This document shows positions 57,989-58,854 of a stretch of 64,000 bases of DNA, piece by piece. Source of the stretch: a virus; UHGV virus genome UHGV-0072281; one strand, given 5' to 3'. Position 1 is the stretch's first letter. Every line of letters starts with the position of its first letter. Under the pieces are notes generated by a model, which was given only the letters and a program-made list of their open reading frames with translations, did not search any database and was not told the DNA's origin. The position numbers and the translations under genes were made by a program.

Positions 57989-58465
57989 ATGATACGTGTC
58001 GAATATGAGACGCGGTGCTTAGAAGACAATCGAGCAAAAGCATTACGTTGTGTTGAAATCGTCCCCGCACACGAACTGGATATTCAAGCTGGTAAGGTTC
58101 GGGGCGTTCCGGTTAAGATCGTACAACACAGCCATTGTTCGCAATATAAAGAGAAAGCTGTCCCAGTAGTACGTTCCAGTAAACGAGAAGACTTTTCAGA
58201 ACTCCGTAAGTGTTTTCAACGACACTACCGCCGGAGTAAATGGAAGGTGTTGGTATTAATGTTAGTCGACGATTTCATTAAAGACCTGGTTTGGGAAGAA
58301 GTGCTTAAAGAGCGTGGTTTTCAACCCAAACCGTTCTCGTATCACTGGGAACGTTTCAAAAAGAAATACCACGAGTCATTGCGTTGGTCTCCGAACACAC
58401 GGAATATGATGCCACGTTTGGAATCAATGCCTTGGCTTCGTGTTTATCTCGATGAGGTAAACTGA
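57989..58465 (+). CDS. hypothetical protein
   Basis: 158 aa; GAGAG SD; TGATG overlap with next gene. Confidence 0.7.
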   Translation: MIRVEYETRCLEDNRAKALRCVEIVPAHELDIQAGKVRGVPVKIVQHSHCSQYKEKAVPVVRSSKREDFSELRKCFQRHYRRSKWKVLVLMLVDDFIKDLVWEEVLKERGFQPKPFSYHWERFKKKYHESLRWSPNTRNMMPRLESMPWLRVYLDEVN

Positions 58466-58854
58466 TGAAACGTTTTATTACCCCCTTTCTAATGTTACTT
58501 TCGTTTTCTGTATTAGCGGATTTTAAACCTTGTGATATCAGTCGTTACGAACCCGCTGTTCCTGGTGATAAACCAGTCGTGTTTAAAGCAGGTGACCAAC
58601 CCGTAACTGCGGTTCAAAACGAAGAGTTTGCAGTGGTGAACTACGGCAAAACGGAGTTATGCCCTGCGGGTGGATTTTATCTGGTGAACATCAAACGTCG
58701 GACTTACCAGTTTGTTGATCCGGGTAGCTGCTCTGCAACGGTTAAGGTAACGTTAGAAACCGTACCTTACACGAATAAAAACATTAATATACAACGTTTA
58801 ACCTTTTATGCGGGTGATGAAATCACAGCACGTTATCCGTTATACGGGTATTAG
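58465..58854 (+). CDS. secreted (signal-peptide) protein
   Basis: 129 aa; N-terminus MKRFITPFLMLLSFSVLA-DFKP typical Sec signal peptide; 4 Cys in mature part; no lipobox. Confidence 0.7.
   Translation: MKRFITPFLMLLSFSVLADFKPCDISRYEPAVPGDKPVVFKAGDQPVTAVQNEEFAVVNYGKTELCPAGGFYLVNIKRRTYQFVDPGSCSATVKVTLETVPYTNKNINIQRLTFYAGDEITARYPLYGY

Follow-up and report, generated by a model that had tools for sequence, protein, structure and literature searches.

Does the virus genome UHGV-0072281 encode a small protein that is delivered to the periplasm of its host, and if so, what might such a protein do there? We asked this of the open reading frame (ORF) at 58465–58854 on the plus strand of a 64-kb stretch of that genome; the whole stretch is called the window below, the ORF the target gene, and its product the window protein. 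An initial annotation, made from the letters of the DNA alone, had described a phage-encoded periplasmic protein with candidate roles in superinfection exclusion, receptor masking or modulation of envelope defense. The ORF of 129 aa is present as described there. The explanation that we moderately favor as a whole is that this is a genuine jumbo-phage gene under purifying selection, whose product would be an exported, non-enzymatic periplasmic binder acting on the host envelope.

A predicted export signal without a lipobox

The window protein begins with MKRFITPFLMLLSFSVLA, followed directly by DFKP. The first segment opens with an n-region MKR, in which K2 and R3 are basic, and continues with an uncharged h-region of 15 residues (FITPFLMLLSFSVLA; mean Kyte-Doolittle hydropathy 2.14). 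It ends in V-L-A, occupying positions −3 to −1 before the predicted cleavage, with D following; this is the pattern of a Sec signal peptide cleaved by signal peptidase I (SPase I). No lipobox ([LVI][ASTVI][GAS]C) was found at the end of the h-region, no Cys occurs in residues 1–22, and the N-terminus has no twin-arginine motif. The first Cys of the protein lies at +5 of the mature chain and is not conserved.

A crude scan for signal peptides and transmembrane (TM) segments covered all ORFs of ≥60 aa across the window. On the coding strand, the target was the sole long ORF that it picked out as having a signal-peptide-like N-terminus; everything else it flagged was short, or lay antisense inside longer ORFs. 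In an alignment of 18 orthologs, the basis for all statements on ortholog conservation below, the n/h/c layout is retained by every member though the sequence of the segment is poorly conserved, and A18 (at −1) and F20 are invariant. The layout is also retained in both paralog families and in the bacterial relatives described below. Because the signal is unique in the scan and its layout is kept in orthologs, paralogs and bacterial relatives, we consider it to be beyond chance. Thus the Sec-type signal of the initial annotation holds, as a prediction of export shared by all orthologs, and so does its statement that a lipobox is absent.

A soluble periplasmic protein is the best reading of these features, since an SPase-I-type signal without a lipobox precedes a Cys-containing beta domain; the location proposed at the outset stands on that prediction. 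The 15-aa h-region is too short for a membrane anchor. One ortholog, P0005 from a 2.5-kb metagenomic contig, has a signal peptide ending in a lipobox-like LFSAC-T; it may be a lipoprotein, as YfjS and YafY of Escherichia coli are, which suggests more than one change of membrane anchoring in the history of the family. A possible objection is that the hydrophobic N-terminus remains uncleaved, which would leave the protein in the inner membrane by a type II signal anchor, or else in the cytoplasm. This finds some support in the distant orthologs P0011–P0018, which have longer N-termini before the hydrophobic core, but in every member that core is only ~12–15 residues long and gives way to a small-x-small motif with the invariant Ala at −1. 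Moreover, the two invariant Cys residues and the lipoprotein relatives (YfjS/YafY, and P0005 with its LFSAC) point to the periplasmic side, and we judge an uncleaved anchor very improbable.

A conserved gene of the SPN3US/phiEaH2 jumbo phages

Proteins of the window match those of the jumbo-phage group that holds SPN3US (Seoulvirus) and phiEaH2/Asesino (Erskinevirus); the virion protein at 54634–55521 is 85% identical to its counterparts in that group. By these protein matches the window is from a jumbo phage of the SPN3US/phiEaH2 group, and the gene is indeed phage-encoded. Megablast against 50,697 phage records gave no match for the window, so the phage is new at the species or genus level. 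Its closest DNA relative is NZ_CP134650.1 (94.7% identity over window positions 57496–60500), a circular record of 222,441 bp filed as the non-mobilizable "plasmid unnamed1" of Enterobacter ludwigii 51A:C, an isolate from the cloaca of a gull. Evidently this element is the genome of a jumbo phage that was either carried by the bacterial isolate or assembled together with it, and then filed as a plasmid, and the 94.7% identity probably extends over the whole window. A 94%-identical fragment occurs in an Enterobacter quasiroggenkampii assembly. Because the closest matches are this fragment and the E. ludwigii element, the host is probably Enterobacter, possibly in a carrier state.

The window protein matches the PHROG 5248 hidden Markov model (HMM) at E=4.8e-37, with residues 1–127 aligned to positions 1–128 of the 129 in the profile. 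Named members of PHROG 5248 are SPN3US_0090 (AEP83923.1), phiEaH2 G173_gp014 and Stratton gp108. PHROG members share the length, gene order and operon of the target, from which the window protein stands out as a species-level variant with an extra, unpaired Cys at position 23. By tblastn, 62 records of jumbo phages (of Erwinia, Salmonella, Escherichia and Proteus) hold orthologs of 48–65% identity, and further orthologs occur in metagenomic phages. Compared with NZ_CP134650.1, the ratio of nonsynonymous to synonymous substitution rates (dN/dS) of the target is 0.17 (5 nonsynonymous and 8 synonymous changes), somewhat looser than the 0 to 0.14 of the neighboring genes; it indicates purifying selection. 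Taken together, these comparisons mark the target as a conserved, syntenic, core-like gene across the SPN3US/phiEaH2 clade. Pfam, NCBIfam and PADLOC scans of the window protein returned nothing significant; a Big_15 match at E=0.12 was set aside as noise.

Invariant among the orthologs are C66, the CPxGG loop, Y72/L73/N75, Y81/Q82, D85-x-G-x-C89 and the C-terminal YPLY-x-Y. The Cys-containing domain of ~110 aa that had been annotated is confirmed, with a mature length of 111 aa and three Cys, two of them (C66 and C89) conserved and the third (C23) not. Cys23 (58531–58533) gives way to Tyr in the E. ludwigii element (95% identical) and to Arg or His in the orthologs P0001 and P0002; as an odd Cys it could allow mixed disulfides or dimerization in the periplasm.

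An AlphaFold2 model of the window protein (mean predicted local distance difference test score, pLDDT, 85; predicted template modeling score, pTM, 0.77) consists of a short helix and then seven beta strands. Mean pLDDT of 10-residue blocks is 87–96 over residues 21–129 with one exception, 73 for residues 101–110. In the model C66 stands just before strand 70–75 (beta3) and C89 just after strand 80–84 (beta4). Because these Cys residues flank one hairpin and the location is predicted to be periplasmic, we propose a putative C66–C89 disulfide across the beta3-beta4 hairpin. A Foldseek search of PDB with the model found no solved structure below E=0.3. The best PDB match by sequence profile, a chitin deacetylase at E=0.95, was rejected, only a CPAG patch being common to the two. 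In BFVD the fold search returned only other small uncharacterized proteins, from the Erwinia jumbo phages Kwan, Huxley and Wellington (E ~1e-4; 17–20% identity). These matches (A0A1B2IE80, A0A1B2IEB7, A0A1B2IDC2 and A0A345BLK7; 125–135 aa) come from another Erwinia jumbo-phage group. On these fold matches, the secreted-domain family may be wider among jumbo phages.

Two paralogs of the target lie outside the window. The first, of the SPN3US_0183 (gp183) type, is a secreted protein of 129 aa with four conserved Cys, carried by the E. ludwigii element as well as by 55 phage records; it is itself a PHROG 5248 member (E=4.6e-31), and hhalign of the gp90-type (target) and gp183-type profiles gives 95.7% probability (E=9e-9). 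The other, of the SPN3US_0182 (gp182) type, belongs to PHROG 8968, is likewise secreted with four Cys, and is encoded directly upstream of the gp183-type gene. It is the more divergent member (93.7% with the gp183 type), and the protein P0041 matches both PHROG 5248 and PHROG 8968. Phages of the SPN3US/phiEaH2 clade are thus predicted to encode three related exported proteins each.

Bacterial relatives and a probable link to YfjS and YafY

A profile search over 1.8 billion representative proteins found ~20 further small relatives (about 110–135 aa; E 4e-12 to 1e-3), all with signal peptides. The small bacterial relatives have in common the motif DAGTSCPAG..L.NK...Y..VD.GTCDD...L.F..GK.TA.YP[LV]Y; they too keep YP[LV]Y at the C-terminus or close to it. 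In the alignment of the whole superfamily, only the columns of C66, G69 and C89 are invariant. Giant repeat proteins (1388–2437 aa) also came up in the search; these are surface proteins with Cys-rich or immunoglobulin-like repeats, giving short repeated matches that we treated as compositional and rejected.

The bacterial relative P0025, which matches the PHROG 5248 HMM at E=4e-19, is encoded between a yfjR-like WYL regulator and antirestriction, RadC and CbeA-CbtA genes, that is, in a CP4-57-like island. The same context recurs in Yersinia, making two relatives so placed in Enterobacterales among those with context, and the slot they occupy is the ypjK-yfjS-yfjT position of E. coli K-12. Other bacterial relatives are found at ordinary chromosomal loci, for example in a Pseudomonas metagenome-assembled genome, where the neighboring gene encodes a 763-aa protein that we presume to be MetE-like.

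The island position is that of YfjS, and most profile comparisons also link the family to it. By hhalign a mixed family profile and E. coli YfjS align at 93% probability (E=2.9e-7), the two Cys being in register along the 112 columns; the bacterial subfamily matches a YfjS/YafY alignment at 71% (E=3.6e-5), and the gp183-type profile matches YfjS at 61% (E=7.9e-5). YfjS also gives a full-length match to the independent PHROG 5248 HMM at E=4.2e-5. The negative controls YfjT (0.2%), NlpE (0.3%) and RcsF were each below 1%; we accordingly do not count YfjT, the secreted neighbor of YfjS, nor NlpE and RcsF, among the relatives.

The two E. coli proteins, encoded in the cryptic prophages CP4-57 and CP4-6 (the CP4-6 copy, presumably YafY, shares 91% identity with YfjS), equal the window protein in domain size and resemble it in several further ways. 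Both kinds of protein carry a Cys pair around the beta3-beta4 hairpin, with C-x-G-G-aromatic-hydrophobic after the first Cys; both are borne by mobile elements, and both are predicted to face the periplasm. The order of a helix and seven strands is also shared, on a low-confidence YfjS model in which the Cys fall before strand 3 and after strand 4. There are differences as well. YfjS and YafY have an LSAC lipobox with Asp at +2, making them inner-membrane lipoproteins, whereas the window protein has an SPase-I signal and is predicted to be soluble; identity is only ~15%; and the C-terminal YPLYGY is missing from YfjS. The slot of YfjS lies downstream of a yfjR-type WYL regulator in CP4-like islands, while the window gene sits in a phage operon, the island position being occupied only by the bacterial secreted intermediates.

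Several results weigh against this relationship. A profile built from the phage proteins only gives no significant match to YfjS (4% probability over 36 columns), so the link depends on intermediate sequences. The Pfam family of YfjS and YafY, PF20494 (YfjS_YafY), does not match the window protein at E≤1, and it matches just one of 23 superfamily members, at E=0.044. The AlphaFold2 model of YfjS is poor (pLDDT 61), for which reason the fold comparison rests solely on the order of secondary structure; that model was dropped as a query for fold searches. With these points in the balance, we still think it quite probable that the window protein is a remote homolog of YfjS/YafY that falls outside PF20494. 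The superfamily, as delimited by sequence comparison, would then comprise PHROG 5248 (gp90- and gp183-type), PHROG 8968 (gp182-type), the small secreted proteins that bacteria encode at the yfjS position of CP4-57-like islands and, remotely, YfjS/YafY of PF20494.

What the protein may do

Experimental work on this superfamily concerns YafY. When 90 E. coli lipoproteins were overproduced, only NlpE and YafY activated the Cpx envelope-stress response; YafY is an inner-membrane lipoprotein, and cells lacking yafY showed no phenotype under lipoprotein-trafficking stress (PMC6538781, PMC6593411, PMC3158067). Because of the remote homology to YfjS/YafY and this activation of Cpx by YafY, modulation of envelope defense, one of the roles proposed for the window protein at the outset, has indirect support.

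We propose that Sec export and release by SPase I would leave a soluble all-beta protein of 12.4 kDa in the periplasm of the host, where C66 and C89 would be oxidized to a disulfide. It would serve as a non-enzymatic binding module, since the superfamily-invariant positions are only Cys, Gly and hydrophobic, with no catalytic-type residue, and the disulfide-stapled CPAGG...DxGSC hairpin would be its conserved contact surface. This hairpin would dock on a component of the host envelope, on the periplasmic side of the inner membrane or close to it. Like overproduced YafY, the bound protein would disturb Cpx-type envelope-stress sensing, and in this way reprogram surface structures or the upkeep of the envelope over the long cycle of a jumbo phage. 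For the last step, perturbation of Cpx-type sensing, we can claim only a tentative standing; superinfection exclusion, discussed below, comes close to it, and the remaining probability goes to some other envelope target. NlpE offers a hypothetical parallel, as it activates Cpx like YafY and has a periplasm-facing beta-rich domain with cysteines; NlpE is unrelated to the window-protein family (hhalign 0.3%), and the likeness would be functional only. SPN3US gp90 is not mentioned in the main texts or searched supplements of the SPN3US virion-proteome and genetics papers, so that literature gives no evidence of virion membership; a Sec-exported protein is not expected to be a virion component.

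The same Cpx data also count on the other side. Activation by YafY is an overproduction phenotype of a membrane-anchored lipoprotein whose deletion had no effect in the stresses tested (PMC6538781, PMC6593411, PMC3158067), and the effect may not be transferable to a soluble phage homolog at ~15% identity. Nor does the neighborhood of the target, with its GNAT acetyltransferase and uncharacterized genes, offer a functional clue.

Nearly as likely as the Cpx mechanism, and similarly tentative, is periplasmic superinfection exclusion, in which the protein would bind the tail tip, lysozyme or ejection machinery of an incoming phage, or a host factor of the periplasm or inner membrane on which DNA entry depends, and so block a second infection. 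Among precedents for secretion by a lytic phage, T4 Spackle (Sp, gp61.3) is understood best: it has a signal peptide and, in the periplasm, inhibits the gp5 tail lysozyme. In conjugative plasmids, small periplasm-facing lipoproteins act as entry-exclusion factors. Like Spackle, the window protein is small, phage-encoded and predicted to act in the periplasm after export by a signal peptide, and it is conserved clade-wide; its bacterial relatives sit in mobile islands beside antirestriction, RadC and toxin-antitoxin genes, as in a module for conflict between mobile elements, and three paralogs per genome would suit several targets. However, exclusion factors in an arms race are often more variable, and we see no diversifying evolution here: dN/dS is 0.17 and identities of 45–65% are like those of neighboring non-structural genes. 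Spackle itself has no homology to the window protein and is helical, where our model is all-beta; more generally, no solved exclusion protein, Spackle-like or other, showed sequence or fold similarity, there being no solved-structure match in two PDB fold searches.

The window protein might instead inhibit a lysozyme, lytic transglycosylase, protease or nuclease of the host or a competitor in the periplasm, in the manner of Ivy, MliC/PliC or ecotin. These are small disulfide-bonded periplasmic beta proteins, and the size, location, beta fold and single putative disulfide found here are typical of such inhibitors; the gene of one bacterial relative, P0024, adjoins that of a secreted S1/P1 nuclease. 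That adjacency was seen once, on a contig of 3 kb, other relatives have different contexts, there are no Pfam or NCBIfam matches, and Ivy, MliC, PliG and ecotin are absent among the matches listed in the two PDB fold searches; we regard inhibition of this kind as unlikely. A lysis-timing regulator, namely a periplasmic antiholin or lysis-inhibition sensor like T4 RI that binds the periplasmic part of a holin or spanin, seems to us unlikelier still. Jumbo phages of the phiKZ type do have a holin/antiholin system, and it has been proposed that they show behavior resembling lysis inhibition, with a periplasmic signal yet to be identified, a part that a soluble secreted protein could play; but the periplasmic domain of the phiKZ holin is small and the antiholin gp143 is cytoplasmic (PMC12894885). 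No homolog of the family was found in Pseudomonas phiKZ-like phages, no recognizable lysis gene adjoins the target, whose operon encodes a GNAT acetyltransferase and uncharacterized cytoplasmic proteins, and the bacterial homologs reside in non-lytic islands and at chromosomal loci. The hallmarks of spanins, holins and antiholins (a TM segment or lipobox with a helical coiled coil, in a lysis cassette) also differ from what we find, an all-beta model behind a cleavable signal.

Gene neighborhood and probable transcription unit

The target lies in a conserved order of genes: virion protein, RuvC-like protein, 2-TM protein, gp87-like, GNAT, gp89-like, target, gp91-like, DprA-like, internal head protein and GNAT. 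The same order is found in SPN3US (where the target is SPN3US_0090), phiEaH2 (G173_gp014) and distant uncultured phages. Coordinates of the features around the target are collected in Table 1.

Table 1. Features of the target gene, its product and its surroundings, with the paralog pair found outside the window
Feature	Coordinates	Strand	Remarks
Coding sequence of the target, 129 aa	58465..58854	+	Stop codon within span; ortholog of SPN3US_0090 and phiEaH2 G173_gp014, PHROG 5248
Predicted Sec signal peptide, residues 1–18, MKRFITPFLMLLSFSVLA	58465..58518	+	SPase I cleavage after A18, inferred
Mature domain, 111 aa, 12.4 kDa, pI 6.4	58519..58851	+	All-beta in the AlphaFold2 model: one short helix then 7 strands
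Family signature C66–C89: C-P-A-G-G, beta3, turn, beta4, D-x-G-S-C	58660..58731	+	Putative disulfide-stapled beta-hairpin
C-terminal motif ARYPLYGY-COOH, last strand	58828..58851	+	Y124, P125, L126, Y127 and Y129 invariant; R123 nearly so
Translation initiation region of the target	58454..58467	+	GAGG Shine-Dalgarno 58454–58457 and TGATG 58463–58467
Upstream coupled gene, 158 aa	57989..58465	+	SPN3US_0089-like, PHROG 9187; without export signal
Downstream gene, 212 aa from ATG at 58878	58878..59516	+	SPN3US_0091-like, PHROG 10571; PHROG match
Probable five-gene transcription unit: gp87-like, GNAT acetyltransferase, gp89-like, target, gp91-like	56835..59516	+	Hairpin-bounded, conserved order
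Intrinsic-terminator-like hairpin, 10-bp stem and T-run	56751..56774	+	Ends the preceding unit
Intrinsic-terminator-like hairpin, 14-bp stem and T-run	59527..59558	+	Ends the unit of the target
Adjacent gp182-/gp183-type gene pair	NZ_CP134650.1 14834-15644 (L018 3577-4387); SPN3US L019 5565-6372		

Translational coupling of the target to its upstream gene, as initially annotated, is real. The TGA of the upstream ORF (58463–58465) and the ATG of the target (58465–58467) overlap by one base, and the GAGG Shine-Dalgarno sequence is 7 nt 5' of the target start. The closest relatives, namely the E. ludwigii element and the P0001 contigs, retain this 1-nt overlap; in SPN3US, phiEaH2 and L003 the gp89-like and target genes are adjacent, without overlap. 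For the downstream gp91-like gene we place the start at 58878: the PHROG alignment begins at residue 9 of the GTG-started ORF, a GGAG lies 5' of this ATG, and relatives are annotated with the same start. Because the stretch from the gp87-like to the gp91-like gene is flanked by the two strongest terminator-like hairpins of the region and its gene order is conserved in all relatives, the target probably belongs to a five-gene transcription unit. A scan for sigma-70 promoters found nothing over shuffled expectation; phages of the SPN3US/phiEaH2 type use their own RNA polymerases.

Some neighboring genes have features of their own. The 192-aa SPN3US_0086-like protein encoded at 56168–56746 (+; PHROG 8722) has two predicted TM segments, near residues 100–118 and 134–152, and is the only other envelope-directed protein in the gene block of the target. 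The RuvC-like Holliday-junction resolvase at 55521–56165 (+; PHROG 159, E=1.7e-38) ends in an unusual basic tail, AKRRRRRRRK. Two genes for GNAT-type acetyltransferases lie within 4 kb (57490–57972 and 61457–61924, both +), the first of them in the probable operon of the target. This first ORF and the gene before it share 32 nt; in NZ_CP134650.1 and the P0001 contigs the annotated protein has 158 aa, which would mean a start two codons downstream in the window. Two antisense ORFs, one of 685 aa (41702–43759, −; unusually long) wholly inside 41534–43819 (+) and one of 269 aa (60410–61219, −) wholly inside 60324–61457 (+), are probably shadow ORFs arising from codon composition.

Implications

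Exported proteins encoded by phages are already known as such, and the target is a probable soluble relative of the YfjS/YafY domain. What our comparisons add is the two secreted paralogs, the small secreted bacterial relatives and the remote link to YfjS/YafY. Through that link three unannotated sets would come together in one superfamily: PHROG 5248/8968, the secreted proteins of CP4-57-like islands and Pfam PF20494. Studies of nucleus-forming jumbo phages have dwelt chiefly on the cytoplasm, with its phage nucleus, early vesicle and RNA polymerases; the words periplasm, signal peptide, secreted and superinfection are absent from a 2026 review of jumbo-phage biology. With the target and its two paralogs, a whole clade appears to invest in proteins of predicted export that would be able to act only on the host envelope.

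A bolder proposal, which we think unlikely as it stands, is that nucleus-forming jumbo phages of Enterobacterales secrete the gp90-, gp182- and gp183-type proteins as a small set of disulfide-bonded YafY relatives that hijack envelope-stress signaling from outside the inner membrane, for example through the CpxA sensor domain or CpxP, and thereby switch off receptor synthesis. The Cpx response represses flagella and other envelope appendages. Since flagella are the receptor of SPN3US (PMC11428620), a secreted protein acting on Cpx could shut down synthesis of the receptor. If this is true, the infected cell would be protected from superinfection and progeny would not be wasted on cells already infected. 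As a phage strategy this would be new: an exported protein would down-regulate the receptor by acting as agonist on a two-component sensor of the host. The orphan YfjS/YafY family would thereby gain a function. The one experimental handle on the superfamily is the activation of Cpx by YafY, which makes function testable with standard reporters; if either exclusion or manipulation of the stress response proves true, it would be relevant to the design of phage cocktails with SPN3US-like therapeutic phages.

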